Below the pieces are notes generated by a model that was not told where the DNA came from, ran no database searches, and saw only the letters and a program-made list of their open reading frames with translations. From the NCBI GenBank assembly GCA_964459035.1, contig CAYWLO010000047.1, positions 10,182 through 32,000 on the forward strand: a DNA stretch of 21,819 bases, written 5' to 3'. Numbering within the stretch: the first letter of the stretch is position 1; each line of letters starts with the position of its first letter. Position numbers and translations under genes: made by a program. The DNA comes from an uncultured Polyangiaceae bacterium. GTDB lineage: Bacteria; Myxococcota_A; Polyangia; Polyangiales; Polyangiaceae. Below are positions 1 through 21,819 of this stretch, piece by piece.

Positions 1-42
1 TGCCCTCACCCGCCACCGCACTGCCCTCACCCGCCACCGCAT
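1..42 (+). repeat. 21-nt tandem direct repeat (2 full units, cut by the window edge), in frame inside the Hsp70-like CDS
   Basis: Units 1-21 and 22-42 (tgccctcacccgccaccgca + c/t) differ only at the last base. In frame 3 they translate as PSPATAL-PSPATAL. A degenerate third unit (tgccttctcctgg) follows. More copies may lie upstream of the window. Confidence 0.7.
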
Positions 43-743
43 TGCCTTCTCCTGGCGAAAAAAGGACGGATCCTCTCGGGGCAACCATGGTGGGACTTCC
101 GGCCCCCCTCCAAGCGCCTCTCGCAGAGGAATTTGACGAACTCTCTATCGCCTCCTTGCTTCCTGAGGAGGCATCCAGCATGTCGATTTCTCGGGCAGCG
201 AGTTCTCCTTTAGATCTTTCTGACGAATCAGAGCTTTCGGCTCCCCTTGATTTGTCGACCCTTGAGTCTCCCCAGCATTCGACTCAGCCTTTGGGAAATG
301 CCTTAGACTCCTCCATCTCTCTGGACGATTCAACTGTCGGTGCACTGAGCCAGTCCGCAGAGGGGCACCGTCCCCAAGCCCCTCTACTTCTCGATGTCAC
401 TCCTCTTTCTTTGGGGGTTGAGGTCAGCGGCGGATACGTCGACAAGCTGATCGAACGCAATAGTCCGATACCCTGCGAAGTAACTAGGACATTTGCCACA
501 ACCCGCGACAACCAGCCTTTGGTACGAATTCGCGTAAGTCAGGGAGAAGAAGGTCGTTTCGAAAAGAACACTGTTCTAGGAGAAGTCGAACTCACTGGAC
601 TATCACAAGGTCTGCGCGGCACTGTAAAGGTAGACGTCAGTTTCTCTTTGGACGAAAGCGGCATGCTTCAAGTAACTGCCCGCGATTTGGCAAGCGGAAA
701 CGCCGCCGATGCTCGCTTAATGCTTGTCGGCGTTTCAGAATAG
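3..743 (+). CDS. Hsp70/DnaK-family protein, 3' part only (5' end outside window): acidic Ser/Pro/Leu-rich insert followed by the substrate-binding beta domain, with no helical lid
   Basis: Frame 3 is open from base 3, so the track start at 42 is an internal TTG. LLLDVTPLSLGVEVSGGYVDKLIERNSPIP...DNQPLVRIRVSQGEE...VKVDVSFSLDESGMLQVTARD matches the canonical DnaK interdomain linker plus SBD-beta pattern (LLLDVTPLSLGIET..RNTTIP..DNQ..V.I.V.QGER..IEVTFDID.NGIL.V.A.D). The TAG at 741-743 falls shortly after the last beta strand. Confidence 0.8.
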   Translation, partial: PSPATALPSPATALPSPGEKRTDPLGATMVGLPAPLQAPLAEEFDELSIASLLPEEASSMSISRAASSPLDLSDESELSAPLDLSTLESPQHSTQPLGNALDSSISLDDSTVGALSQSAEGHRPQAPLLLDVTPLSLGVEVSGGYVDKLIERNSPIPCEVTRTFATTRDNQPLVRIRVSQGEEGRFEKNTVLGEVELTGLSQGLRGTVKVDVSFSLDESGMLQVTARDLASGNAADARLMLVGVSE

Positions 744-782: not shown

Positions 783-1322
783 ATGACCGCGTCCCCCAAC
801 TACGACCTGATTGTTTCCTGGCTCGATATTCTTGATTCGTCGAGCTACTATGAACTGCTTGGTCTATTAGAAATTGCTGATGACGACGCCATACAGAATG
901 CTTTTCATACATTTTCTAAAAGCTTTCATCCCGATAGACACCGCGCCGCCCCTGAGAATATTCAAAAGGCAGTAGCCAAAATTTATAGTCGAGGAGCTGA
1001 AGCGTATGGGATATTACGTCGCGAGGTGTCTCGACAGGCTTATGATCTCGCCCTATCCCAAGGAGTCTTACGCCTCACTCCGGGTAAGGCCCGCCCCCAA
1101 GTTCTTCGCACCTCAGAAAGTCTCGAGTCCGCCTGCAAAACTCCCGGAGGGCGTTTGCACGCCCGTCAGCTGGAGCGAGCTCTTAGCGAAAATAAGTGGG
1201 AAGAAGCCCGACACCTCCTCAGAAAGGCCCTTCTGAGCGAAAACCTGAATGAAGAGCTTGAAAAGCGTTACCACGCCCTCCTTCAGCTCGCCGGGGTTGC
1301 TCACGATAAAAGTCAACGGTGA
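783..1322 (+). CDS. J-domain (DnaJ-like) co-chaperone, 179 aa, without Zn-finger or C-terminal DnaJ domains
   Basis: YYELLGLLEIADDDAIQNAFHTFSKSFHPDRH...AEAYGILRREVSRQAYD is J-domain helices I-III with the HPD tripeptide. It starts 39 nt downstream of the Hsp70 stop on the same strand. Confidence 0.8.
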   Translation: MTASPNYDLIVSWLDILDSSSYYELLGLLEIADDDAIQNAFHTFSKSFHPDRHRAAPENIQKAVAKIYSRGAEAYGILRREVSRQAYDLALSQGVLRLTPGKARPQVLRTSESLESACKTPGGRLHARQLERALSENKWEEARHLLRKALLSENLNEELEKRYHALLQLAGVAHDKSQR

Positions 1323-1697: not shown

Positions 1698-3044
1698 GTG
1701 AAGATCTCTTGCCCCTCATGCTCAGCTAAGTATTCGATCGCGGACGAGAAAGTCCAAAGTCGCCTTGCCAAGATCCGTTGCCGAAAGTGCGGAACCTCCA
1801 TCGTTATCGATGGAAACGTCTCGCCGGCTAATGTTTACGCCGCAGATGCGGGCGCAAGTGCATCCGCAGGAGCGGTTGCACCGGTCGCCCCTGCAGTAGA
1901 ACCTGCTCCGACAACGACTTACTCAGTTGACCTCGGTGAGAGCGATCAACGACAAATGACCGTTCCGGAAATTGTGGCGGCCTACAACGATGGCACTGTT
2001 ACGCCCGAGACTTTCGTTTGGGCGGATGGTTTCGCAGATTGGACTGCCCTCTCCGAGGTAGAGGAAATCGTGGCGTCTTTACACAGCGCGGCCGCCCAAG
2101 ATTCACCCACTGCACCGACGGATGAGGTCTCTGCTGCTGGTGCCTCAACCGCACCTCAAGAAAACCCCTGGGAGGCCGGTGGGCTCGGCGCACCTGCAGC
2201 ACCTGCTGAAAGCCCCCCAGCCTCCGGTGGTGGCGCAGATCTATTTGGCGGTGTGGCAGAGGCCGGCGGCGAAGCCGACCAGACCTCCGATCCTAGTCCG
2301 TTTGGCGCGGCGGCTGCCGCTGCTCCTGCGGACACAGGCGCGCGCAACGAGTCTTCGGTACTCTTTTCATTGAGTGCTCTCACTTCAGGTGCCACTGCGT
2401 CTCGTCCTAGTTCGCCGCTAGCTTCGGTTCCACCTTCCGCCGTTTCAAACAACGACGACTCGGGTTTGATCGACCTCAAAGCGCTCACTTCAGCCGCAGA
2501 TGCCAGCGCAAGCCCCTTGGCTGCGCCAAGCCCCTTGGCAGCAGCGCCTCTCGGTGCAACGGGTGCAGCAGCTTCTCCTCTCGGTGGACCTAGTCTCGGC
2601 TCTGGAGCATCCATTCCGCCGCAATCCAGCGGCGGTAGCAAAAATGTAATTATTCTTGGTGGTTTTGGTCTTGTGGCGGCAATCGCAGTCGCTGTCATTA
2701 CTCAAATGGGCGGGAGCCCTGAGCCCGAGGTTGCGCCTGCAGCCAGTGCTGTACCCATCGCTACCGCTGCTACGGCAGCCCCAGTAGCAGCAGCTCCAAC
2801 GCTTCCCACTACCGAAGCAAAGGCTCCTTCGACAGGGACAGAAGAGGACGAAGCCGCGCCAAAGAAAAAGTCAGGCTCGACCGCAAAACGTACGACACGG
2901 CGGAGAACCGGCGGGACTGCAAAGAAGGCGACCAGTGGCACCAAGTCCACGGCAAAACCCAAGCCACGAAAAAAGAAGAGTACGCGAAGCAAGTGCGGTT
3001 GTAAGAAAGACGACCTCATGTGCATGATGAACTGCGCACAGTAA
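1698..3044 (+). CDS. MJ0042-type zinc-ribbon + GYF_2 domain protein with a long Ala/Pro/Ser-rich region, one TM helix and a Lys-rich, Cys-containing tail
   Basis: GTG start with GGAGAG 8 nt upstream. N-terminus MKISCPSCSAKYSIADEKV...IRCRKCGTSIVID has two CxxC pairs (zinc ribbon). YSVDLGESDQRQMTVPEIVAAYNDGTVTPETFVWADGFADWTALSEVEEI has the GYF_2 pattern. TM segment NVIILGGFGLVAAIAVAVITQ. Tail KPKPRKKKSTRSKCGCKKDDLMCMMNCAQ. Confidence 0.75.
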   Translation: MKISCPSCSAKYSIADEKVQSRLAKIRCRKCGTSIVIDGNVSPANVYAADAGASASAGAVAPVAPAVEPAPTTTYSVDLGESDQRQMTVPEIVAAYNDGTVTPETFVWADGFADWTALSEVEEIVASLHSAAAQDSPTAPTDEVSAAGASTAPQENPWEAGGLGAPAAPAESPPASGGGADLFGGVAEAGGEADQTSDPSPFGAAAAAAPADTGARNESSVLFSLSALTSGATASRPSSPLASVPPSAVSNNDDSGLIDLKALTSAADASASPLAAPSPLAAAPLGATGAAASPLGGPSLGSGASIPPQSSGGSKNVIILGGFGLVAAIAVAVITQMGGSPEPEVAPAASAVPIATAATAAPVAAAPTLPTTEAKAPSTGTEEDEAAPKKKSGSTAKRTTRRRTGGTAKKATSGTKSTAKPKPRKKKSTRSKCGCKKDDLMCMMNCAQ

Positions 3045-3143: not shown

Positions 3144-6100
3144 TCACTCTTCGGATGATGAGGCAGTGTTCAAATAGTCCAAGAGCGCTTCCGCCGGATG
3201 GCGAGGCACAAAGCCTTCAAATCGCTTCACCTGGCTACGACAAGAATGTCCGGTTGCCATCACACGTGCCCGCTCAGCGCCTGACTCGGGAAGCTGCTTT
3301 TTCCAGCTCATCTCGAAGATGCCTCTAGACTCCTCAAGATGTTCCTCTTCGTGGCCGAAAACACCACACATGCCGCAACAGCCAGTTGCTTTCACGGACA
3401 CCGCTGCACCAAATCTCTCGAACACGGCTTTCCATTTTTCCTGACTTTTTGTCTCAAATGTACGCTCGGTACAATGGCCAAATAGCTGATAAGGCTCTTG
3501 CCTCGATGTCGCTGTGGGCACACGCTTACCTATCAACGCCTCAAGATTTTCTTCCAAATATTCCTGCAAGAGTTGAATGCGAAATTCGGGCATTTCTTTC
3601 CCCAATTCGTGAGGATACTCGTCGCGGTAGGTCAGAGTTACAGCGGGCTCTATTCCCACAATTGGTATGCCGAGTCGAAAAACTTTCGCAAAGTACACCG
3701 AATTGCTTCTTACGACTTTCCTAAATCGCCCTAAGAACCCTTTGATATGAAGCGCTTTGCCATTTTCTCTGAAAGGCAAAAATATCACCCGTCGCCCTAA
3801 CTTTGTGAGCAAGTCATATGCGGCGAGAGCCACTTGAGGCTCATAAAATGTGGTAAAGGCGTCTTGTGCAATGAGTACAACTCGCCCTGCGTCCTCTTTG
3901 GAAAGAGCATTCATTGATGAAAAGTCGAACGATTCGGCGCCGCGCTCTTTGAGCCCTGCTTTCAAGGTATCTTCGGCAAGCAGGGGGGTATCAATCATGC
4001 CAACCCATCTTCGAATGAACCACTTTGAGGGAGCCCACGTCATCAGCCAGTTGCTCAGACGCGGCCAAAGAACCAAAATGCTCAATATGGATTCAAGAGC
4101 GGCTACAAAGTAGTCCTTCAGTGGTCGGCGATAACGCCCGTGGTATTGCTCCAAGAATTCAGCACGGAGCGCAGGGATATCCACCTTGACTGGGCATTGA
4201 GTGGCGCATGCTTTGCACGCCAAACACCCAGCCATTGCGTCGTATACTTGATGAGAGAAATCATCACGCGGCTTATCTCGACCCCGAATTGTGCTCGTGG
4301 ACAATGAATCGTCCGCTCCCATCTTGGCCCCTGCGTCGTGCCCGCTCTGAGCTAATAGTCGAAGCCACTCTCGCAAGATCCCGGCTCGCCCCTTCGGGGA
4401 ATGAATACGGTCGCGGGTCACCTTTGATGAGGGACACATGACAGAATCTGGATTCCAGTCGAAACACGCGCCGTTGCCATTGCAATTGACTGACGCTTCA
4501 AATTTTTTGCGAGTCGGCTCAGCAATTTGGCGATCGTAGGCGCCGCGCTTCATGGCGTCCACGCTCACCAGTTGGTCCGTACTTGCCGATGGGGTGGCTA
4601 GTTTTCCAGGGTTGAGCTGATTGTGAGGATCAAACGCAGACTTTACCCTGCGCAACTCTTTGTAAAGGGCGTCGCCAAAAAAAGTGGGTGTGTACTCACT
4701 TCGGTAGCCCTTGCCGTGTTCTCCCCAAAGCACCCCCCCGTACTTCTTCACCAAAGCAACCACTTCGTCGGTAATTCCCCGAAGCAAGGCTTCATCCTTC
4801 TCCGACTTCAGATCGAGAGCCGGCCGTACATGCAAACAGCCGACATCGACATGCCCAAACATTCCATAACGAAGGCCACGCTTATCCAAAAGAGCGCGAA
4901 AGTCGCGAATATAGTCGGCGAGGTGCTCAGGGGGGACAGCTGTGTCTTCGACAAAGGCGACGGGGCGGCGCGCCCCCTTTGCATTTCCCAAAAGTCCCAC
5001 CCCTTTTTTACGTAAGGACCACAAGGCAGCAATGTCTTGAGCGGTCGTTGCTACAGTATATCCCGAGGCTTGGCCGCTCTTTCCGCAGTGAGTGTTTAGG
5101 CTCGCGCAAAGCTCTTCTACCTTATTCTGAACAAGGGCAGGATCATCCGACTCGAACTCAACAAGATTGATAGCTGCGGCTGGAGGCTCATTTTTTCCTT
5201 CAACGAGATGGGAGATAGAACTCCAAATTGTATCTCCCCGCGCGAGGCCAACTATCGTATCATCAACCGTTTCGATGGCCCCCGGGTTACTTGCCACAAG
5301 TTTTCCGGCGTCACGCAAAGCACTATCAAATTCGGGGTAGCGAATTGCCACCAATTGCCGATGGCGCGCAATGGGCGTGAGGCGCAACTTGGCCTCAGTG
5401 AGAACGACAAGAGTTCCCTCGGAGCCCGCTATCACTCGCGAGAGATCGAATTTTCCGTCGGGTGTCTCAATATGGGCGAGATCGTATCCCGTAAGAAATC
5501 GCTTCAATTTGGGCAGATCTGTTTTGATTCGCTCCCGACTACTTTCCACAATTTCAGCAACTTGACAGTAAACACGCCCCGGCATGCCTTCTTTTTTGCA
5601 AGCCAATGCAAATTCTTCAGGGTCGAGAGGCAAAGTCTCAAGAATCTTGCCGTCCATCATGACCGAACGTAGCGCGAGCACATGGTCGCTCGTTTTACCG
5701 TAGATTCTTGAGCCTTTTCCACTGGCGTCTGTATTGATCATCCCCCCCAAGGTAGCTCGACTACTAGGCGACAAATTGGGGGCAAAGAAGACGTCGTGAG
5801 GGGCCAAAAATGCGTTCAGTTGATCTAATACAACGCCGGGTTGTACCCGTACCCATCCCTCAGCCAGGTTCAGCTCTAATATTTCTCCGAAGTGCCGGGA
5901 TACATCCATGATGACACCGTCACAAAGGGATTGCCCATTCGTGCCAGTTCCGCCCCCCCGAGGACTCAATTTTACCTCACGATATTCTTCATCATTGGCT
6001 AGCTCCAAAACGCAGGCAACATCTGTCTCGTTTCGGGGATAGACCACCGCAAGAGGCACTATTTGATAGACGCTGTTGTCAGTGGCCGTAACTAGGCGGG

Positions 6101-6209
6101 TCGCGTAGTCCGTACGAATCTCCCCCGAGAAACCACTGTTTTCGAGTGCTTTGATGAAAGACGCGTAAATAGCCGGGAGATATTCGTCTGGGGCCAACAG
6201 GGGGATCAT
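3144..6209 (-). CDS. ydiJ: FAD-linked oxidase fused to 4Fe-4S and CCG domains (YdiJ-like, putative D-2-hydroxyacid/D-2-hydroxyglutarate dehydrogenase)
   Basis: About 1020 aa. FAD_binding_4-type motifs PRGGGTGTNGQS and ATLGGMINTDASGKGS. Ferredoxin motif CLACKACATQCPVKVDIP plus an upstream Cys set (CNGNGACFDW..MCPS). CCG-type motif GCCGMCG near the C-terminus. I chose the ATG at 6209 (MIPLL...) because it resembles the E. coli YdiJ N-terminus as I recall it. The track's GTG at 6254 is an alternative start. Confidence 0.85.
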   Translation of the reverse strand: MIPLLAPDEYLPAIYASFIKALENSGFSGEIRTDYATRLVTATDNSVYQIVPLAVVYPRNETDVACVLELANDEEYREVKLSPRGGGTGTNGQSLCDGVIMDVSRHFGEILELNLAEGWVRVQPGVVLDQLNAFLAPHDVFFAPNLSPSSRATLGGMINTDASGKGSRIYGKTSDHVLALRSVMMDGKILETLPLDPEEFALACKKEGMPGRVYCQVAEIVESSRERIKTDLPKLKRFLTGYDLAHIETPDGKFDLSRVIAGSEGTLVVLTEAKLRLTPIARHRQLVAIRYPEFDSALRDAGKLVASNPGAIETVDDTIVGLARGDTIWSSISHLVEGKNEPPAAAINLVEFESDDPALVQNKVEELCASLNTHCGKSGQASGYTVATTAQDIAALWSLRKKGVGLLGNAKGARRPVAFVEDTAVPPEHLADYIRDFRALLDKRGLRYGMFGHVDVGCLHVRPALDLKSEKDEALLRGITDEVVALVKKYGGVLWGEHGKGYRSEYTPTFFGDALYKELRRVKSAFDPHNQLNPGKLATPSASTDQLVSVDAMKRGAYDRQIAEPTRKKFEASVNCNGNGACFDWNPDSVMCPSSKVTRDRIHSPKGRAGILREWLRLLAQSGHDAGAKMGADDSLSTSTIRGRDKPRDDFSHQVYDAMAGCLACKACATQCPVKVDIPALRAEFLEQYHGRYRRPLKDYFVAALESILSILVLWPRLSNWLMTWAPSKWFIRRWVGMIDTPLLAEDTLKAGLKERGAESFDFSSMNALSKEDAGRVVLIAQDAFTTFYEPQVALAAYDLLTKLGRRVIFLPFRENGKALHIKGFLGRFRKVVRSNSVYFAKVFRLGIPIVGIEPAVTLTYRDEYPHELGKEMPEFRIQLLQEYLEENLEALIGKRVPTATSRQEPYQLFGHCTERTFETKSQEKWKAVFERFGAAVSVKATGCCGMCGVFGHEEEHLEESRGIFEMSWKKQLPESGAERARVMATGHSCRSQVKRFEGFVPRHPAEALLDYLNTASSSEE

Positions 6210-6291
6210 TGCCGCTGGATACTCGACGCTTGCACTCGGCGCTAGCCAAAGCACCCAGAAGAAATCAAATTTACCCCTTCAAAAGGTATGA

Positions 6292-8846: not shown

Positions 8847-11054
8847 CTAATGAGCACCTACCATACGGCGCACGACCCAATGTAAAGACATAAAAAATGC
8901 CGCCATGGTCGCCCAAGCCCACGGTGGCAATAGAGGACGGCTCTCCCTCTGGGCCAACACAAAAGCAGACGAGGGCGGGGCAAGTAAAGAAATGTCGTCG
9001 GCTGTCACGGCGGTCCCGCCAGTAGCCTCGGCAATCGCGGCCAATCGAGGGGAGTCCGGGCGACTATCGGCCCATGCCTGACCACCGAATTCACATGCAA
9101 AGACTGTCCTGGTAGGAGGGGCTGCCCCCACCTTTACCCGCGCGGCATATCCTCCAGGCTTCAGCCCACGAGCGATGAAGCGGTGCCCACCGTCTTTTCC
9201 AGCGGGAGCCATTGCAATATTACGCACATCACTCACCTTTGTTCCCAATCGTTCCAAAGTAAGAGAAATTTTAGCATCGTCCGAGAAATGTGAGTCAACT
9301 CGAAACAACAGATCGCGCCCTGCTATGCAATCGTTCTCCAAGCGAAGCTGAGCTGCTTCGTATCGCGGATCTCTCATCAACCACCCCAATAGACCTCCCC
9401 ATAAGTCAGCATGAGCTCGCCCTCCCGCTCTCGCCCCCGAGTCGCCAAATCTCAATTGATGGGTTCCGTCCACAGAAATTGCAATCGTGCGACCGTCACC
9501 CACCTCATGGAGTGCCAAAATGGGCATTTTACTACCGTCGGCAAGCGAAATGGACGGATGCTCCCATAAAACTAATGCGTTGTCCCGAGCCGCACCTAAA
9601 ATATTGGCCCCACTCATCGTCGGCAGCTCCTCGCCCATGGTAGCTCGCAGGGCATTGAGCATGGGCGCGGCCCGCCCGGCCTCGGTGTAGCGGGGCTCAA
9701 AGGCCTTTTGAGTAATTAATTCGCCACGACGGGGCAAGTCTACAGGCAGTACGTCGGCAACGAGAGATCCTCCATAGCCACCAGCAGAAAAGCCAGTGTG
9801 CCCTCCCACCAAAATGAGCCCCCCCCCTTTGAGAACGTAATTCTTCAAGGAGCGAAAGTGGCGATCTAGTTGATATTCGCGGGCATTGATATCTTGAAGG
9901 ATCACAGCATCAAAACTCTTAAGATGTTCACTAAAAAGTTCGTCAACAGGAAAAGGAATCAAGGCCATTTCATCAGGACGAGCCTCCACCTGATCACTTA
10001 AAGTACGCAGAATGAAAAATGATCTCAAGGCGATGCTCTCGTCTGACTTAAGAAACATTCTGAGGGCGCGAACATCGTAGGTTGGTCGTCCAGCCACATG
10101 TAGCATGCGCAATCTATCGCGCTCTACGTGCACGGGTAAAATACGTCTATCGTTCTGCGGAATATCGTCAGCTTCGTCTCCAAGGAGTTCCACTTCAATC
10201 ACACGCTCGCCCGCTCGTTCAAGAGTCACGTCCAGATCGAAGCGAGCAATCCCCTCTTGCCCATTTGTCTTACCGCGAACTAACTCGACAGGTTCTTGCC
10301 CCTCAATTAGTTCGCGCACAACAACTTCCACGTCGTTACATGTGCTGTGGGGAAAACAGCCAATTTCGAGAGCTAGGGAAAAGGCTTGATGAGCTATAGC
10401 ACTGCCAGTGAGCCCCACATTTCGAATGCTTCTATCGCGAGGATTCTTATTCGCGATAGAAATAGTGTGAACTTTGATACCTCTTGCAGCCTTTTTAACC
10501 TCTTCGCGCCAGGCTGCCCCGGTGCTTGGTCCAGGACGAGTCAGGCGACCATCACTCACAACGACGATCGCGCGAGGACGCTCCCCTTGAGCACCTGCAA
10601 CGTGCGCAAGCTGCGCGATGAGATCACTCTCCGGAAATTTTTGCACTTGAATGCGCGAGTTTTTCCAATGGGCCTCAAGAGCCTGTGCCGATCTTTCGGC
10701 AAGGGAACGACGGCTTTCACCGCCCACCTCCAGGGGAATTTCTAAACGATGTGAGTCGTCGAGTAAGATAATGCCGACTCCAGGCACAGCGTGCCCTTTT
10801 TGAATCAGCCTGCTTGGACGCATCACTGCAAAGGAGAGAAGTAGACTTCCCAGGGCTCCTGAAGCAAAAAGAAGTATCTTCCAATTTTTTTGCGCGCGCA
10901 CTTCGAAAGCGAGGAGAATCAATGTGCAAAAAAGAAGCCCCAAGACTCCTACTTGAGTCACAACAGAAAGGTCTCCACTGAGACGCAACGGGGCCCACCA
11001 TGACGTCACAAACGACGAAAGCACACTCGAATGAGCAGAAATAAGAGGTGTCAT
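8847..11054 (-). CDS. Large membrane protein: two N-terminal TM helices, degenerate VWA-like region, GATase1-like (PF07090/DUF1355-type) domain, C-terminal TM anchor
   Basis: ATG at 11054 (the track's TTG at 11057 is one codon upstream). TM segments VVTQVGVLGLLFCTLILLAF, ILLFASGALGSLLLSFAVM and the C-terminal WAWATMAAFFMSLHWVV. FDAVILQDINAREY...LKNYVLKGGGLILVGGHTGFSAGGYGGSLVADVLPVDL is the motif I associate with the putative glutamine-amidotransferase-like domain of Bat/DUF4159-neighbourhood proteins. ILLDDSHRLE and AIVVVSDGRLT look like a MIDAS-less VWA remnant. Confidence 0.6.
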   Translation of the reverse strand: MTPLISAHSSVLSSFVTSWWAPLRLSGDLSVVTQVGVLGLLFCTLILLAFEVRAQKNWKILLFASGALGSLLLSFAVMRPSRLIQKGHAVPGVGIILLDDSHRLEIPLEVGGESRRSLAERSAQALEAHWKNSRIQVQKFPESDLIAQLAHVAGAQGERPRAIVVVSDGRLTRPGPSTGAAWREEVKKAARGIKVHTISIANKNPRDRSIRNVGLTGSAIAHQAFSLALEIGCFPHSTCNDVEVVVRELIEGQEPVELVRGKTNGQEGIARFDLDVTLERAGERVIEVELLGDEADDIPQNDRRILPVHVERDRLRMLHVAGRPTYDVRALRMFLKSDESIALRSFFILRTLSDQVEARPDEMALIPFPVDELFSEHLKSFDAVILQDINAREYQLDRHFRSLKNYVLKGGGLILVGGHTGFSAGGYGGSLVADVLPVDLPRRGELITQKAFEPRYTEAGRAAPMLNALRATMGEELPTMSGANILGAARDNALVLWEHPSISLADGSKMPILALHEVGDGRTIAISVDGTHQLRFGDSGARAGGRAHADLWGGLLGWLMRDPRYEAAQLRLENDCIAGRDLLFRVDSHFSDDAKISLTLERLGTKVSDVRNIAMAPAGKDGGHRFIARGLKPGGYAARVKVGAAPPTRTVFACEFGGQAWADSRPDSPRLAAIAEATGGTAVTADDISLLAPPSSAFVLAQRESRPLLPPWAWATMAAFFMSLHWVVRRMVGAH

Positions 11055-15480: not shown

Positions 15481-15539
15481 AGCTGCCGTTATTGCTTCGG
15501 GGACATCGTGTCCTCGAAACCATAGAAGGAGCCAACACC

Positions 15540-15821
15540 ATGGGCGAAGCAGCAGAAGACCGATCATTCATTCTTAACTCAGAAGCACTACTCCCCCCTC
15601 AGCCATTGAAGCGCATGACCCTGCGTGAAGTACGTAAAGAACTGGGTAGGACCCAGGTGCAGGTAGCCAAAGAGGCAGGCATGTCCCAAGGAGACCTCAG
15701 TCGCTTGGAGCGCCGAAGCGATCACCTACTCTCCACTCTGGAGCGCTACGCCGAGGCATTGGGAGGGCGGCTTGATATAGCCATGGTACGCGGTACCCGT
15801 CGCTATCCCCTAGAGTTCTAA
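15540..15821 (+). CDS. XRE-family helix-turn-helix transcriptional regulator (93 aa)
   Basis: The ATG at 15540 is preceded by GAAGGAG (15525-15531) with an 8-nt spacer, which is better than the track's TTG at 15492. LREVRKELGRTQVQVAKEAGMSQGDLSRLERRSD is the HTH_3/XRE signature. Confidence 0.8.
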   Translation: MGEAAEDRSFILNSEALLPPQPLKRMTLREVRKELGRTQVQVAKEAGMSQGDLSRLERRSDHLLSTLERYAEALGGRLDIAMVRGTRRYPLEF

Positions 15822-15877: not shown

Positions 15878-15909
15878 TAAAAAGGCCCACGACACATGCC
15901 GTCCGGGCC
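15878..15909 (-). terminator. Intrinsic terminator closing the radical-SAM/DUF547/methyltransferase operon (possibly bidirectional)
   Basis: GGCCC-ac-GAC (15884-15893) pairs with GTC-c-GGGCC (15901-15909) around a 7-nt loop. On the minus strand the hairpin is followed by TTTTTAT (complement of 15877-15883), 26 nt after the stop at 15935. Confidence 0.6.
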
Positions 15910-15934
15910 TTCAGCGTTTTGTACTAAGTGAATT

Positions 15935-16756
15935 CTACTTTTTAGCCACGAAAGTGGCGTAACCTAGACCCTTCGCCAAAACAAATTCTCGGGCTGCCCC
16001 TAAGGTCTCTTTCATTTCGAGCAGGTCCAGGCCCTCGACGAACTCTGAAGAGTCCATCTCTGCAACTTTTGAAAGACGAGACTCAATCTGGGCTATTAGT
16101 AAAACGAGGGAATCACTCTCATCTCGATAATGAATATTGTCGAAGCCACCCTCACGAAGAACATCGTGATAGCCCTCTACAGAAAGAGCACCCGAGATAC
16201 ACAATACCTGCCCCACAATGCCCTGTAGCTCGTCGGGTAGTGGACGGTTGAGCACCACATCCGAGAGAGCTAATATTCCGCGATTATCTAATATACGGTG
16301 CACCTCCTTTACGGCTTGAATCCGTTGAGGAAAAGTACAAAGAGCGCACTCACAAAACGCGATATTAAAAGCACCATCCGAAAAAGGCAAATACCCGGCG
16401 TCCCCCTGAACAAACGAGACCCGATGGTCCATATTTTGCTCTTGAGCCCGCGCATTCGCTTTTTGCACCTGGTCTTCCGAATAGTCCAGCCCCACAACTT
16501 GGGATCCATACTTTTTAAGAAGATGAAGCGCAGTATCACCCCGACCACTGGCGATATCGCAAACCTTATCCCTTGGTCCCAATGCCACCGCTCGGGCCAG
16601 TTTATCCGTAAGCTCTAACCCGCCGGGATGATAACTACTGCCCAAGAGCAATCTGGTGAGCGGTAATTCATAGAATCCGGAGCAGCAAGATGTCACACAC
16701 GTCGCTTCTGTGAGAACTTTTGTCACTCTTTTTCCTTCGTCTTGTTTAGTGCCCAA
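15935..16756 (-). CDS. Class I SAM-dependent methyltransferase with an ArsM-like cysteine pattern
   Basis: SAM motif I VCDIASGRGDTA, post-I VVGLDYSEDQV, motif II GAFNIAFCE. N-terminal SCCSGFYE...LLGSSYHPGG, then FCECALCTF and VLCISGALSVEGYHDVLREGGF. The start is either TTG at 16756, or GTG at 16726, which overlaps the DUF547 stop as GTGA and has GAAGGA upstream. Confidence 0.8.
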   Translation of the reverse strand: MGTKQDEGKRVTKVLTEATCVTSCCSGFYELPLTRLLLGSSYHPGGLELTDKLARAVALGPRDKVCDIASGRGDTALHLLKKYGSQVVGLDYSEDQVQKANARAQEQNMDHRVSFVQGDAGYLPFSDGAFNIAFCECALCTFPQRIQAVKEVHRILDNRGILALSDVVLNRPLPDELQGIVGQVLCISGALSVEGYHDVLREGGFDNIHYRDESDSLVLLIAQIESRLSKVAEMDSSEFVEGLDLLEMKETLGAAREFVLAKGLGYATFVAKK

Positions 16757-17616
16757 TCGTATTCATTCATTTCCACGGTGTAATCCCTTGCCCTCTCCAG
16801 CTCTAAAGACATCTCGCCGGTGGCAACCAGCTTCAGGTAGTCAACAATACCTCGACCTGTGCTCTGTCCTTGACGCCTCAATTCGTTGAGAAAGTCCTCC
16901 TTGTACCAAGAGAAAATCTTTGAAACCTTCAAGATCTTTTTTTGGTGATCGAAGGTCACATTCTTTTTATCGCCTACAAAATCCGCTGCTGCCGCCGCTA
17001 AGTACGGCTCAAGTTCCTCCCCCGTAGGCAGGCGCGGTCGCATAATTGGACATCCTCCACTCCCGCAGTTGAGAACAAAGTGCACGCGTGGGTCCTGGGT
17101 TCTCGCCAGTATCTTCTGGTGCTCTAACTCGTAGAGCGAAAGGACTTCGCCTCCCAAGGTGAACTTCAACTTGTAGAAGAAGCCAAGTCCCTGGACGACT
17201 TCAATCGGAGCCTTCACATCGGTAACACTCTCAATCGGCCAACGATCCAAAATTGCGTCAATCACAAGCGCGTTGTAGGCGTACATCCAGTAGGCGGTTT
17301 GGGCGCTAGCATTGGCAAAACGTTGCGGTGCGTTGTCAGGGCTCAACGCGGCCACCGCCCCGAGGTAGCGCTTCAACTTGCGGCGATCTTTGGGCGTGTC
17401 ATGCCAGCGCTGATAATTGACCAGCCCCTCTTCGACGTACTCAAGCAATAGTTCCTCAAAAGAGGTATGACTGAATCCATCATTCGGAAAATTGACCGGC
17501 AACTCATGAGAATAACGAGATACGTCAGGTCGAACGACATAATACACCACCCCTAAGAGAAGCATTAGAACGAATGCGCCTATTGCCAACATTATTCTCT
17601 TTCTTTTCTTTCGCAT
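16723..17616 (-). CDS. Membrane-anchored DUF547 (PF04784-like) protein
   Basis: N-terminus MRKKRKRIMLAIGAFVLMLLLGVVYYVV is a basic stretch plus one TM helix. AYWMYAYNALVIDAIL and VHFVLNCGSGGCPIM match the DUF547 hallmarks as I recall them (aFWIN.YNa..i, hfaLnC.s.sCP.l). The ATG is 6 nt after the radical SAM stop. Confidence 0.7.
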   Translation of the reverse strand: MRKKRKRIMLAIGAFVLMLLLGVVYYVVRPDVSRYSHELPVNFPNDGFSHTSFEELLLEYVEEGLVNYQRWHDTPKDRRKLKRYLGAVAALSPDNAPQRFANASAQTAYWMYAYNALVIDAILDRWPIESVTDVKAPIEVVQGLGFFYKLKFTLGGEVLSLYELEHQKILARTQDPRVHFVLNCGSGGCPIMRPRLPTGEELEPYLAAAAADFVGDKKNVTFDHQKKILKVSKIFSWYKEDFLNELRRQGQSTGRGIVDYLKLVATGEMSLELERARDYTVEMNEYDWALNKTKEKE

Positions 17617-17622
17617 ATCGAC

Positions 17623-19122
17623 TCAATCGACCAATGCCGTACTCGACTTTTTTTCGCCTCGCCCCAACTGAACGAGAGGTAGTGGTCCTGCCTTCTTTCC
17701 TGGCACGCGCTCAGCTCGTAAAGGTTTGAGCACTCGTTCTTCTAGGTCATCTCGATAAAGCATATTGTATGTATCGAAAGGTATGACCCTCTCCCCATCG
17801 GGGTGTAAAATGTGAACGCATGTTTTTCGAATTGAGCGCAGATCAAACGAGTATGCGTCGATAAATTGTATGATGAGTACCCGAAAAACATCTTCCTTTT
17901 TTAACTTTTCTCCGGCGCCGTGATTTGCCACAGATGAAAGTTCCTCGAGGGCAGACGCCTGCCCCACCGAAGAGTGCCGCGTTGAGAATAGATCAAAGAA
18001 TTTCTCTCGCAGGCCAGTTTCAGCTTCGTAGCTAATGGTATTGCGGGCAGCTTCCATCAACATCTTCGGTTCGATGAACCCTGTAAGGGGCAATAGCTTT
18101 CCCTTCTTCTTGAGGGCGTAGGCCATCGAGACCGAGTCCGCGTGGCAAGGAACTGGTATAATATCTTCTGGGCTGAAAGTATCACTTTGCCTGAGAATAT
18201 TACGCCGTACCTCAGTCAACGTCAGTCGATCTCGTCCAGGATCGAAACCGTTTTCGTACCCCTCTAGACGTCCAGCGGCCTGCACAGGCTGAAAGGTAAC
18301 ACCACGAACGCAGGGCTGCTTTTGTGCGTACTCGATAATCGCCCCCAACTCGCCATCGTTTACCCCCCGTTTTACAGTGACGACCAAGGTCGTAGAAATT
18401 CCGAGCGAATTCAGTTTGTCCAACGCCTTTTCGCGAATCGCGCGTAAATCTGCCCCTCGTAAATCCATCAAGGCTGAGCGCTTAAAAGAGTCAAACTGCA
18501 AATAGACCTCAAAGTCGTCCTCGTATTCTTTGAGACGTTCGGCAAATCCTTTCTCGTTGGCGATGCGCAGCCCATTGGTGTTGAGCATCATGTGTTTGAT
18601 GGGACGGGCCCTCACCATGTCAAGAATCTCAAAGAACTGGGGATGTAGCGTTGGCTCCCCGCCGGAAACTTGCAAAATTTCAACCGTCCCCTCGTTGGCC
18701 ACCGCCAAATCGAGCATTTTTTCGATTTGCGCTAGGGAGCGATGAGTTTTTCTCTCGGGGGCGCTTTCCGCGTAGCAAGTGGGGCAGCGCAGATTGCAGC
18801 TATCTGTAACCTCCAACAGCAAGTTGCAACCATGCTGTTCGTGATCGGGACAAATACCACAATCGTAAGGGCACCCGTAGTGGGAAAGCGTATTGTACTG
18901 GCGTACCTGCTCGGGCTCCTTGACGTAGACTTCGCGGCACAGCTTATAGTAGTCAATGTCGTCCGCTATCAAGACACGTTCGGCGCCGTGCTCTGAGCAG
19001 CGCTTGAGCATCCAGACGCACCCCTCTTGAAACACTATCTTTGCATCAACGCGCCTCAAGCACGTCGAGCAAATAGAGACTGCAATATCGTAGAATTGGT
19101 AGGGGCGTACCGGAGCGTTCAT
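17623..19122 (-). CDS. Radical SAM enzyme with an N-terminal rubredoxin/zinc-ribbon-like motif and an extra Cys cluster (MJ0619/Tes-like layout), 499 aa
   Basis: CNLRCPTC (CX3CX2C, nt 18775-18798, checked against the DNA), followed by a GGEP-type motif (QVSGGEPTLHP). Upstream, YGCPYDCGICPDHEQHGC gives four more Cys. The N-terminus is CSTC...C......CSEHG. There is no Cys-rich SPASM-type C-terminus. Confidence 0.85.
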   Translation of the reverse strand: MNAPVRPYQFYDIAVSICSTCLRRVDAKIVFQEGCVWMLKRCSEHGAERVLIADDIDYYKLCREVYVKEPEQVRQYNTLSHYGCPYDCGICPDHEQHGCNLLLEVTDSCNLRCPTCYAESAPERKTHRSLAQIEKMLDLAVANEGTVEILQVSGGEPTLHPQFFEILDMVRARPIKHMMLNTNGLRIANEKGFAERLKEYEDDFEVYLQFDSFKRSALMDLRGADLRAIREKALDKLNSLGISTTLVVTVKRGVNDGELGAIIEYAQKQPCVRGVTFQPVQAAGRLEGYENGFDPGRDRLTLTEVRRNILRQSDTFSPEDIIPVPCHADSVSMAYALKKKGKLLPLTGFIEPKMLMEAARNTISYEAETGLREKFFDLFSTRHSSVGQASALEELSSVANHGAGEKLKKEDVFRVLIIQFIDAYSFDLRSIRKTCVHILHPDGERVIPFDTYNMLYRDDLEERVLKPLRAERVPGKKAGPLPLVQLGRGEKKSSTALVD

Positions 19123-19209
19123 CGCTCAACAATACGCCTCCCTAGCTTTTTGGTTTCAAAGTTTGTGCGCAACGGCTCTATAAGCCCTCAGCACATAAAT
19201 TTTCTCAGC

Positions 19210-20583
19210 TCAACTACCCTCGCACTGCAGGGAAATATCCACAGAAGCTCCGGTGCCGCGAGTATCGCAAGTTGCCGGACATAGATGAACAATTGGATCT
19301 GAGCCTGAAAAATCGACCCAATACTCTTGCGCACTGGTGCAATCGTTTTCAGCAGTAACCCGTGCAAGGGGCAACTGAGTGGCGCCGTTATTAGGGGTAA
19401 ATAGCACTTCTAGAGAGCTAATATTGGCAAGGCCAACGTCTGATTTTGGTAGCACGTACTCGCAACCCAACACGGCACCACGAATATCCCCAAGAGCCAG
19501 CTGAAAAGCAGCGGGATCGCCATTGCCCACAGAATAATAACTGCAAAGGGGATTCGTATCGTCGGCTAGACAGTTAGCGTGAGGGGTTGCCCCGGCGCCC
19601 GCTGCAAGAGTCTCCAAACGGTCACTGTTTACCCCATCCATCCCGATAATAAACGTGGGCACGCCGTTGTTCGTCAGATTGTCTTTGAGGAGCCCATTGA
19701 GTTCGGTAAAATGCTCAATAACATTCTGCACAACATCCTCGTCGGGATCATTATTTAGTTTACGACATGTAGATGAGGGGTCACCGTCCGTAATCAAGAT
19801 GGCAACGGTTTTCCTTGTTCCCGTCGGCATATGGCTCCCGGTCTCAGCAATCAAAGTATCAACTGCTCCCTCCGTGTTGGTGCCACTACGCGGGTCGTCA
19901 TCATTCATCGCGGTGCGAACCGCTGCCAGCTGGACGCCGCTTTGCTGCAAAATTCCAAAGGGTACGTCCATAGAAAATGCGTCGCAAGAGCCACTGTGAA
20001 ACTCTCCGTAGGACACGCCGGTCTCCAACTGCGCAGGGTCATCGAAAAAACCATAGAGTGAATTGATAGAATTACACCAACGCGACCCCACGTTCGCCTC
20101 GCCTATGTCGCAGTATCCGCCACTGTCGTTGTTTCCTGTATTATTTCCATCAACCACGGCCCCCTTGGTCATCGATCCCGATTTGTCCAATATGACAAAC
20201 ATGTCCAGAAACACTTCTCGGGATTCTATTTTAAGGTCGGTGCAAGTCGTGGGGCTAGCATCATTAGTTGGATCGTAGGAGAATGTAATATCCGTCGGAA
20301 GTGTTCGAGTTCCTCCTGCACCGGAGCTAGCTCCGCTTCCTTGTGCGCCCGTTGCGGAACTCGCACCTTCACCAGAGCCCGCCGCTGCCCCCATGGAACC
20401 CGAGCTGGCTCCCTGCCCCGACGTTCCTCCGGATGCGTCGTTTACCCCTTTGCCATCGGCTCCACCCATTGCGCCGCCCTCGTCGCCCAAAGAACTTGAG
20501 CAGGCATTGAGAAGTAGCAAAGAGCAAATGGTCAGCCCGGAAACTACGGTAAGAGTGGGTGTTCTTCTATTCAAGTTCATCAT
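19210..20583 (-). CDS. VWA-domain lipoprotein with a Gly/Ser/Ala linker and a Cys-rich C-terminal domain (paralog 1)
   Basis: Signal peptide with lipobox-like LLLLNAC. Roughly 70 aa of G/S/A-rich linker. MIDAS elements FVILDKSGSM, GTNTEGA, ILITDGDPS. C-terminus CEYVLP...LFTP...C...YW...HLCPATCD...SLQC. AAGGA lies 4 nt before the ATG and overlaps the upstream stop region. Confidence 0.8.
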   Translation of the reverse strand: MMNLNRRTPTLTVVSGLTICSLLLLNACSSSLGDEGGAMGGADGKGVNDASGGTSGQGASSGSMGAAAGSGEGASSATGAQGSGASSGAGGTRTLPTDITFSYDPTNDASPTTCTDLKIESREVFLDMFVILDKSGSMTKGAVVDGNNTGNNDSGGYCDIGEANVGSRWCNSINSLYGFFDDPAQLETGVSYGEFHSGSCDAFSMDVPFGILQQSGVQLAAVRTAMNDDDPRSGTNTEGAVDTLIAETGSHMPTGTRKTVAILITDGDPSSTCRKLNNDPDEDVVQNVIEHFTELNGLLKDNLTNNGVPTFIIGMDGVNSDRLETLAAGAGATPHANCLADDTNPLCSYYSVGNGDPAAFQLALGDIRGAVLGCEYVLPKSDVGLANISSLEVLFTPNNGATQLPLARVTAENDCTSAQEYWVDFSGSDPIVHLCPATCDTRGTGASVDISLQCEGS

Positions 20584-20591
20584 AAGTCCTT

Positions 20592-21819
20592 TCAGCGAAC
20601 AACCGTCACTGTTTCCTGACAGCCAAATATAACGCGAACATCTGCTCCCGCGTCACTCAATATATCGTCACAAACGGTCCCGCAGATCACAATCTGTTTT
20701 CCGTCGGGACTAAACTGCCATCCTTCGGCGTTTTCACATTGGCCCTCACCAGCCTGAACCGCGTCCTGGGCAATGAAGGACTTCTTTCCTCCACTGGGAG
20801 TATACTCAACATTGACCAATTTCGGATCAACGAGCGCATTTGCAGGAACGTCGTACTCACAGGTATTGGCTGTCTCCTCAGTAATTCCCCTGAATTCAGC
20901 TCCGAGATCTTTGGCAAACTCAGTGCTCGTTGTCAGGTCGATATGACACGCCTCGCTCGCGTCGGCAGCGTCTTCCTTACAATCGGTGGATTTTCTCGTT
21001 CCGCCAAGTACGGCTATCTCCGAGAGAAGAGCTCGCGAACCTTCACTTCCAGGCGCTCCAATTGCGTAGGTACGAATACCGTAGAATTTCTCCGCCTCTG
21101 TGACAAAATCCTTCAAGTTTTCGATTGCGTCCGTTTGGCAAGTTTCTACCCCGTCGGTCATGAGGACCAAATAGTTGTCCCCCTCTAACTCACCGGAATG
21201 AATTCCTCGGCGTAAGACCTCTAGGCCACGAATTGCAGCTCCCGCTAGAGGAGTTTCTCCGGCCGCAGCTAGACTCAGGCCCTCACCTAGACTCGCCAAC
21301 TGATCGACAGTGAGTGAATCAAGAGAAACGGTCACATCACCTTGCGCCGGGACACCGCAATGAGCGTCGGTGGGAAAGGCAATGAGCCCCGCACTGACCC
21401 CGACCTGCCCGGCCAAAGTCTGAAGAGCACCGTTGCCCCCGGTAAGTGCGTCTTGAGTAATCTCCCACTTAGAGAGCTCCGTCGAATCGATCTTCTCAGG
21501 TAGCTTGCATTCGCTGTCAAAAGCGTTGCAATTCATACTGCCGCTTTTATCGACCACAAAGAGCAGGTTGGCCGGAACTAAGGTAGCTTCCTCGTCGGAC
21601 TCCGAGCAACTAACAGTTGCTCCCTGACCCGAGGAAGCTGCAGCCCCGCTGCCCCGTGCTCCCCCCAGGCCAAGATCAATATTGGATCCCTTGCCAGCAC
21701 CGGATGAACTAGCACCACTCCCCTCAGAATTCGTGCCCATCTCTCCGCCAGCGAGAGAATCTATCTCAGGAAAACTATTGCAGCCAATCGATAGTGAAAC
21801 AGCCACCGACAAGTACCAC
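20592..21819 (-). CDS. VWA-domain lipoprotein (paralog 2), 5' end probably just outside the window
   Basis: The frame stays open to the window edge (..WYLSVAVSLSIGC, lipobox LSIGC). G/S/A-rich linker. MIDAS elements LFVVDKSGSM, GETPLAGA, LVLMTDGVE. C-terminus CEYDVP...EYTP...C...GW...VICGTVCD...IFGC, parallel to paralog 1. Confidence 0.8.
   Translation of the reverse strand, partial: WYLSVAVSLSIGCNSFPEIDSLAGGEMGTNSEGSGASSSGAGKGSNIDLGLGGARGSGAAASSGQGATVSCSESDEEATLVPANLLFVVDKSGSMNCNAFDSECKLPEKIDSTELSKWEITQDALTGGNGALQTLAGQVGVSAGLIAFPTDAHCGVPAQGDVTVSLDSLTVDQLASLGEGLSLAAAGETPLAGAAIRGLEVLRRGIHSGELEGDNYLVLMTDGVETCQTDAIENLKDFVTEAEKFYGIRTYAIGAPGSEGSRALLSEIAVLGGTRKSTDCKEDAADASEACHIDLTTSTEFAKDLGAEFRGITEETANTCEYDVPANALVDPKLVNVEYTPSGGKKSFIAQDAVQAGEGQCENAEGWQFSPDGKQIVICGTVCDDILSDAGADVRVIFGCQETVTVVR

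Follow-up and report, generated by a model that had tools for sequence, protein, structure and literature searches.

A conserved cassette of a radical SAM enzyme, a DUF547 protein and a cysteine-rich methyltransferase in an uncultured Polyangiaceae bacterium

An uncultured Polyangiaceae bacterium (assembly GCA_964459035.1) carries, on contig CAYWLO010000047.1, a compact set of three genes that encode a radical S-adenosylmethionine (SAM) enzyme, a protein of the domain family DUF547, and a cysteine-rich class I SAM methyltransferase. The genes lie within a stretch of 21,819 nucleotides (positions 10,182 to 32,000 of the contig) that was analyzed as a whole and is referred to here as the window. 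Judged from gene order and gene junctions, the three genes form a self-contained, apparently co-translated cassette that has been conserved in otherwise unrelated neighborhoods. The radical SAM enzyme is constantly accompanied by the methyltransferase, and not by the DUF547 protein. Indeed, the pairing of such a radical SAM enzyme with such a methyltransferase is a recurrent module found in at least three radical SAM clades, and the window holds a variant of the TrsS-like form of this module.

An initial annotation of the window had described three tightly packed minus-strand genes as a translationally coupled operon for a candidate uncharacterized modification pathway. The open reading frame (ORF) list and the sequence agree with this description: a gap of 6 nt separates the TGA of the radical SAM gene from the ATG of the DUF547 gene, and the TGA of the latter overlaps the GTG of the methyltransferase gene as GTGA. 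The domain calls (Zn_ribbon_HMPTM plus Radical_SAM, DUF547, and a class I methyltransferase) are upheld by Pfam, and domain annotation of the window ORFs likewise finds neither ars genes nor a transporter. Literature searches yielded no description of a radical SAM-DUF547-methyltransferase cassette and nothing on the pathway, which is consistent with the label "uncharacterized."

Relatives of the radical SAM enzyme were gathered in a scan with one genome per species, which gave 80 loci with enzymes 55-76% identical, and these loci were searched by tblastn with the DUF547 and methyltransferase proteins of the window. The full triad, with its order kept, is present at 11 loci in reference genomes that represent at least four phyla (L001, L002, L004-L010, L012, and L016). 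The hosts include Polyangiaceae (L001, L002), Gemmatimonadota (L004, L009), Planctomycetota (L010, L012), and Gamma-, Beta- and other Pseudomonadota (L005-L008). Junctions in these genomes are mostly 4-nt overlaps (-4 nt) and the flanks are unrelated, so both the coupled operon and its conservation in related genomes, on which the initial annotation had staked its proposal, hold. At two other loci (L011 and the truncated L003), the methyltransferase gene directly follows the radical SAM gene without an intervening DUF547 gene; the methyltransferase is thus present at 13 of 13 clade loci and DUF547 at 11. No further conserved genes around the triad were found by all-against-all clustering of neighboring ORFs. 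A distant triad, whose methyltransferase is 36% identical to that of the window, is located on a metagenomic contig (L087). The G+C content of the cassette (0.485-0.524) is inside the range of the window, and recent horizontal transfer into the source genome is therefore unsupported.

The radical SAM enzyme and its Lgt-linked sister clade

The radical SAM enzyme has an N-terminal Zn-ribbon or rubredoxin-like site (C18, C21, C42, H45), a group of auxiliary-cluster cysteines (C84, C88, C91, and probably C435), and the radical SAM motif C109-x3-C113-x2-C116. Its closest solved relative is the GDGT-MAS/Tes of Methanocaldococcus jannaschii (PDB 7tol, E = 1.2e-62), and in this alignment the rubredoxin-like, auxiliary-cluster, and radical-SAM-cluster ligands are all kept. 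The enzyme therefore has the MJ0619/GDGT-MAS layout first recognized from the sequence, and it shares superfamily, domain layout, and cluster ligands with the Tes enzymes MJ0619 and MA_1486. It is not itself a Tes, however. The score against the NCBIfam Tes model (NF045702) is 253.7 bits, which fails the cut-off of 450, and the enzyme is distant from 7tol in the tree described below. The best-scoring NCBIfam model is TrsS (NF045646; 312.8 bits), also below its cut-off (490), and the ArsS model (TIGR04167) is failed with 43.8 bits against 300.

Among representatives clustered at 50% identity, an exhaustive search returned 589 clusters at E <= 1e-30. The clade of the window enzyme corresponds to one such representative (61% identical), and the next representative is 49% identical. 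In a neighbor-joining tree of 307 columns, built without support values, the triad-linked enzymes form one clade that is sister to clades from Acidobacteriaceae and Paenibacillus. The 7tol enzyme groups with TrsS-like representatives far from the window clade, and the true TrsS members P0435 (607 bits) and P0439 (502 bits) are also far from it. The phylogeny that the initial annotation had called for thus places the enzyme in a separate clade, outside both Tes and TrsS. The enzyme further differs from GDGT-MAS at C99 and C326, which are kept in 86% and 80% of superfamily representatives, respectively, and are Ile and Ser in GDGT-MAS; the two cysteines may constitute an additional redox or ligand site by which most of the superfamily differs from Tes. 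Unlike the window cassette, Tes needs neither a dedicated methyltransferase nor a DUF547 protein. In the Tes reaction, the intermediate is joined to the cluster through a carbon-sulfur bond (PMC13459092).

Two observations concern the wider superfamily. P0443 (688 aa) is a Zn_ribbon_HMPTM radical SAM enzyme fused to a C-terminal DUF5714 domain, another partner in the superfamily. Bacterial-type radical SAM enzymes (58-60% identical) also occur on archaeal-labeled contigs from a Halobacteriales (L043) and a Thermoplasmatota (L046) metagenome-assembled genome, which could reflect either inter-domain transfer or binning error.

The sister clade contains enzymes from Acidobacteriaceae, Paenibacillus, and cyanobacteria that are 55-63% identical to the window enzyme. 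Only five alignment positions discriminate it from the triad clade, so the enzymes of the two clades very probably share chemistry. At 64 sister-clade loci, an Lgt-like membrane protein is encoded before the radical SAM gene, often overlapping it (e.g., L050:7226-8008 and L013:6597-7487), and small hydrophobic ORFs are found near the radical SAM genes. No match to DUF547 or the methyltransferase was obtained by tblastn within 8 kb at the loci left after the triad clade is set aside (L013-L080). The Lgt-like protein (about 256 aa, with HPTQLYE and GRIGCF motifs) is distantly paralogous to prolipoprotein diacylglyceryl transferase and scores under the cut-offs of that family. Lgt enzymes act on phosphatidylglycerol and diacylglyceryl groups. 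Fusions of LGT, Zn-ribbon, and radical SAM domains are also found (P0339, 733 aa and 47% identical to the window enzyme, and P0438); at the sister-clade locus L047 the radical SAM ORF is 750 aa long.

The strongest hint at the substrate comes from this pairing and fusion with Lgt-like proteins, which points to a membrane glycerolipid or a similar molecule. No literature was found that links Lgt to radical SAM enzymes or tetraethers, or that describes the pairing or the fusion. Zeng et al. 2022 probably included the Lgt-linked clade in the bacterial homologs that they noted. Such bacterial "Tes homologs" resemble the window system in their radical SAM enzyme and differ from it in their partner, which is Lgt-like rather than a methyltransferase and a DUF547 protein.

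The methyltransferase, the DUF547 protein, and related modules

The conserved features of the methyltransferase in its family alignment are SCC (14-15), an invariant HPGG (33-36), CECALC (125-130), and C176. The protein matches the Pfam families Methyltransf_31, Methyltransf_25, and Methyltransf_11 and has a class I fold. Among NCBIfam models, the DVU_1556 family (NF045667) fits it best, with a score just under the cut-off (133.5 bits against 155). An AlphaFold2 model (predicted local distance difference test, pLDDT, 89) retrieved AtmM/RebM and phosphoethanolamine N-methyltransferase (E = 4e-21) in Foldseek, and the small-molecule methyltransferases TleD and MitM are further fold neighbors. 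Membership in the ArsM family, which has a similar cysteine layout, was rejected: the score against PRK11873 is 90.2 bits (cut-off 263), and no ArsM structure is among the top 50 fold matches.

Five distant members of the methyltransferase family were sampled (34-39% identical; L086, L087, L088, L092, and L093), and in all five cases the gene directly follows that of a Zn_ribbon_HMPTM radical SAM enzyme. In Kribbella (L086), the pair is followed by a flavoprotein disulfide reductase (MerA/lipoamide-dehydrogenase-like); in two other Actinobacteria (L092, L093), it is followed by a protein of the SRPBCC/Polyketide_cyc2 family, which is annotated as binding hydrophobic ligands. The radical SAM enzymes of these actinobacterial loci belong to a clade different from that of the window. 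The third gene thus varies among modules and encodes a DUF547 protein with a CX4C motif, a C_GCAxxG_C_C protein, a disulfide reductase, or an SRPBCC protein. No description of radical SAM enzymes paired with a cysteine-rich methyltransferase across clades was found in the literature. In the surroundings of the L086, L092, and L093 pairs, genes for AhpD-like, DoxX, and AhpC proteins and a Crp-type regulator recur, and CsoR, ArsP_1+YHS, or HMA ATPase genes occur near some actinobacterial pairs, giving the neighborhood a redox or metal flavor.

The closest described analogue, which the initial annotation missed, is the NCBIfam trio of TrsS, the DVU_1556 methyltransferase, and the DVU_1555 C-GCAxxG-C-C protein (NF045646, NF045667, and NF045669), a system that is catalogued and uncharacterized. 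Like the window cassette, it consists of three genes, with a Zn_ribbon_HMPTM radical SAM enzyme, a related methyltransferase with (H/R)PGG and CEC motifs, and a small protein with a cysteine motif. At the TrsS locus L089, the order is DVU_1556 methyltransferase (168 bits, cut-off 155), DVU_1555 C-GCAxxG-C-C protein (135 bits, cut-off 103), and TrsS; the methyltransferase is 34% identical to that of the window (E = 1e-22). In contrast to this system, both window proteins score under the cut-offs, the radical SAM clade is distant, and the gene order is different. The membrane-anchored DUF547 protein takes the place of C_GCAxxG_C_C, of which domain annotation found no gene at the window triad, and the methyltransferase carries two features that its TrsS-locus cousin lacks, an N-terminal SCC and a C-terminal lid that contains C176. 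TrsS has been listed as a selenoprotein (PMC13188914). In the literature it was found only as a table listing, and nothing was found on DVU_1554-1556.

The DUF547 protein matches its Pfam family with 60.9 bits (gathering cut-off 27). Its subfamily is characterized by a length of about 290 aa, one N-terminal transmembrane helix, and an invariant HFVLNCxSxxCP motif (CX4C; C184/C189), and 113 of 120 homologs have exactly two cysteines. The AlphaFold2 model (pLDDT 90.5) has no significant match in the PDB by fold search (best E = 0.7, TM-score about 0.2), and a sequence search of the PDB was empty. The best-scoring matches of the protein are probably triad-linked, as their contigs agree in length with those of triad loci or of the radical SAM and methyltransferase matches. 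Five homologs sampled lower down (48-51% identical, with the invariant residues kept) all stand alone, and DUF547 as an obligate partner was rejected on this ground. As it is absent from two of the 13 clade loci, is replaced in related modules, and has distant homologs that stand alone, DUF547 is an accessory rather than a core component.

Beside one stand-alone DUF547 gene (L090:5001-6447), a thioredoxin/AhpC-like gene lies 35 nt downstream, and CMD, DoxX, and another thioredoxin-fold gene are nearby; this is a thiol-redox setting outside the cassette. In plants, class IV glutaredoxins are GRX-DEP-DUF547 fusions (PMC13621322). No functional literature on DUF547 was found. We infer a thiol-linked accessory role that is not specific to this pathway. 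The expectation that the cassette would give DUF547 its first functional context is borne out in that one context is provided; this context is not a defining one, given the accessory status of the protein.

Proposed chemistry and its alternatives

The reading tentatively preferred here is that the cassette uses radical chemistry to functionalize a C-H bond of a hydrophobic substrate residing in the membrane and couples this step to a methyl transfer assisted by thiols. By homology with GDGT-MAS, the CX3CX2C cluster of the radical SAM enzyme would cleave SAM to give a 5'-deoxyadenosyl radical. This radical would take a hydrogen atom from an unactivated C-H bond of the membrane-resident substrate, most likely a glycerolipid tail, and the auxiliary [4Fe-4S] cluster would capture or couple the resulting substrate radical. 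The methyltransferase, with a predicted active site lined by the conserved cysteines and histidine, would use SAM to methylate a soft centre (a thiol, sulfide, selenide, or thiol-held heteroatom) that is either made in the radical SAM step or handed over. The DUF547 protein, with its one-helix membrane tether and single CX4C motif, may be an exchangeable accessory for thiol-disulfide exchange or substrate hand-off.

A membrane or lipid substrate is suggested by the Lgt pairing and fusion in the sister clade, by the transmembrane anchor of DUF547, and by the SRPBCC partners. Thiol chemistry is suggested by the cysteine motifs of the methyltransferase, the CX4C of DUF547, and the disulfide reductase, AhpD-like, AhpC, and DoxX neighbors. 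The stand-alone DUF547 gene beside a thioredoxin-like gene and the plant glutaredoxin-DUF547 fusions (PMC13621322) point in the same direction. The initial annotation had offered a membrane-lipid module and organo-metalloid or thiol chemistry as alternatives; the cassette may have elements of both, with a lipid-like substrate and thiol-assisted chemistry.

Several points weigh against C-H functionalization of a membrane substrate with thiol-assisted methyl transfer. Clustering of neighboring genes linked no lipid-biosynthesis gene to the triad. The sister clade does without the methyltransferase, which indicates that the radical SAM enzyme does not always need methyl transfer. The nearest structures of the methyltransferase act on O, N, and C atoms of soluble small molecules, and its cysteines, instead of binding the substrate, could be ligands of a structural metal or of an Fe-S cluster. 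More positive residues (K/R) follow the DUF547 helix than precede it in 71 of 120 homologs, so that charge counts favor a cytoplasmic domain only weakly. The stand-alone homologs mean that the role of DUF547 may be generic. Finally, the neighbor-joining tree carries no support values.

A more specific proposal, in our view rather improbable, is that the cassette makes lipids with a methylated heteroatom at the chain terminus, as a split, lipid-directed analogue of methylthiolation. The terminal C-H radical of a tail would be captured on a cluster sulfide or on thiol-bound Se or As, and the adduct would be released without coupling to a second tail and capped by the cysteine-lined methyltransferase, with DUF547 recycling membrane thiols. 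If true, methylthio-, seleno-, or arseno-lipids could arise by this route.

The homology to GDGT-MAS, with all ligands conserved, also suggests a bacterial tetraether or membrane-spanning lipid synthase, in which Tes-like tail-to-tail joining would produce lipids of the branched glycerol dialkyl glycerol tetraether (brGDGT) or iso-diabolic-acid type and the methyltransferase would add branches or edit the head group. The Lgt-linked sister clade is abundant among Acidobacteriaceae, a family reported to produce brGDGT or iso-diabolic acid, and one source names the clade member P0092 "tetraether lipid synthase." Published proposals, made without experimental test, hold that bacterial Tes homologs make brGDGTs (PMC8941075, PMC10087280). 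Such a function is nevertheless unlikely for the window enzyme in view of its sub-threshold Tes score and its distance from 7tol, and a cysteine-lined methyltransferase and thiol-redox accessories would have no obvious role in tail coupling. Moreover, its clade and the sister clade also occur in Paenibacillus, cyanobacteria, and Gammaproteobacteria, groups that to our knowledge are not known for membrane-spanning lipids. Zeng et al. list stronger bacterial candidates for Tes, which are a different set (40-42% identical to MA_1486), and the experimentally supported bacterial enzyme is Mss.

Modification of a soluble cofactor or small metabolite (e.g., a pterin, as first proposed for MJ0619/HMPTM, or the product of TrsS), with an incidental DUF547 anchor, is also unlikely. 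The name of the Pfam domain stems from the HMPTM assignment, TrsS is the best-scoring NCBIfam model, the structural neighbors of the methyltransferase are small-molecule methyltransferases, and flavin reductase and FMN_red genes are found near the TrsS locus. These points are countered by the Lgt-like proteins paired with or fused to the sister-clade enzymes, by the membrane anchor of DUF547, and by the SRPBCC accessories in related modules; neighbor clustering also linked no cofactor-biosynthesis genes to the triad.

An organo-metalloid pathway for As, Se, or Te would have the radical SAM enzyme form a carbon-metalloid bond and an ArsM-like methyltransferase methylate the metalloid. The initial annotation had drawn the comparison with ArsS/ArsM (arsenosugar) and ArsL/ArsM (arsinothricin), which likewise place a radical SAM enzyme beside a cysteine-containing SAM methyltransferase. 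The methyltransferase has weak ArsM matches and cysteines spaced much as in ArsM, some sources label its relatives arsenite methyltransferase, TrsS and its partners are often selenoproteins, and ArsR-type, CsoR, ArsP_1+YHS, and HMA ATPase genes are located near some actinobacterial pairs. The analogy is weak, however: the radical SAM enzyme belongs to another family, as its ArsS score reflects, the ArsM cut-off is failed, and ArsM is outside the top fold matches. No ars, acr3, or arsenic-regulator gene is conserved at the 12 triad loci or in the window, and the metal-related genes of the actinobacterial loci are several kilobases away and differ between loci. Metalloid chemistry is accordingly judged unlikely.

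Fortuitous adjacency of three unrelated genes, to which the frequency of DUF547 homologs and generic methyltransferases as stand-alone genes might lend some credence, is effectively refuted by the order and overlapping junctions at 12 or more loci, which span at least four phyla and have unrelated flanks, and by the linkage of the methyltransferase family to radical SAM enzymes in every sampled case. Some of the probability falls to chemistry other than any of these readings.

The locus, its surroundings, and wider significance

The coordinates of the cassette and its signals are given in Table 1. In public assemblies, gene calls for the methyltransferase use the GTG start (16726), and those for DUF547 begin at starts that give 280, 289, or 297 aa. 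The hairpin and T5 that had been described as closing the unit are present about 25-30 nt past the methyltransferase stop, before a convergent helix-turn-helix (HTH) gene. A terminator scan matched positions 15902-15889, to which RNA folding adds an extended stem; the hairpin has the right shape but an unexceptional folding energy (z = -0.34). In the 87-nt gap upstream of the radical SAM gene, a promoter scan found no convincing sigma-70 site; the operon may use other promoter types of the host or read-through from the upstream lipoprotein genes.

Table 1. Features of the cassette and its signals (window coordinates)
Feature	Position	Strand	Remarks
Radical SAM enzyme, Tes/TrsS/HMPTM superfamily, distinct clade	17623-19122	-	ATG start, 499 aa; PF23545 + PF04055
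DUF547 protein with N-terminal transmembrane anchor	16723-17616	-	297 aa; PF04784
Cysteine-rich class I SAM methyltransferase, "HPGG/CEC" family	15935-16726	-	GTG start, 263 aa
Alternative TTG start of the methyltransferase	16756 (ORF 15935-16756)	-	10 extra residues
GC-rich hairpin GGCCC...GGGCC then T5, likely intrinsic terminator	~15879-15911	-	sequence, terminator scan, RNA fold
GGGAGG, possible Shine-Dalgarno	19137-19142	-	14 nt upstream of the radical SAM ATG

The genes that adjoin the cassette in the window are not conserved at other triad loci. Upstream of the radical SAM gene, at a distance of 87 nt, are tandem paralogous lipoproteins (19210-20583 and 20592-21812, minus strand) with weak VWA matches, Gly/Ser/Ala-rich linkers, and lipobox-like N-termini (LLNAC and SIGC). 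On the other side, an XRE-type HTH regulator (15492-15821, plus strand) is convergent with the methyltransferase gene and has the hairpin region in common with it; as it is not conserved at other triad loci, it is probably unrelated to the cassette.

The remainder of the window includes genes for HEAT-repeat, GATase1-like, and DUF4159 proteins and a peroxiredoxin. An ORF with just part of an Hsp70 substrate-binding domain (42-743, plus strand) is followed by a DnaJ-domain protein (783-1322, plus strand). A protein encoded at 1698-3044 (plus strand) combines a Zn-ribbon and GYF_2 with a long low-complexity region rich in Ala, Pro, and Ser and a tail that is rich in Lys and contains cysteine. 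At 3144-6254 (minus strand), a protein of 1036 aa fuses an FAD-linked oxidase (FAD_binding_4 + FAD-oxidase_C) to a 4Fe-4S dicluster domain and has a long, cysteine-containing C-terminal region.

The names TrsS, DVU_1556, and DVU_1555 are already catalogued; no earlier description was found of the triad cassette, of the pairing of radical SAM enzyme and methyltransferase across clades, or of the Lgt pairing and fusion. The Tes superfamily is central to a geochemical question, that of the enzymes behind the membrane-spanning lipids of bacteria, compounds that serve as palaeoclimate proxies. The "bacterial Tes homologs" are not one thing, as they include at least three clades with a cysteine-rich methyltransferase and a fourth with an Lgt-like lipid transferase. 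Because these clades and their partners are distinct, it is risky to tally such homologs as brGDGT synthases in metagenomic data. With just three genes in 3.2 kb and no other required neighbors, the cassette is a convenient target for heterologous expression. For DUF547, which ranges from bacteria to plants, it offers a testable thiol-linked role.

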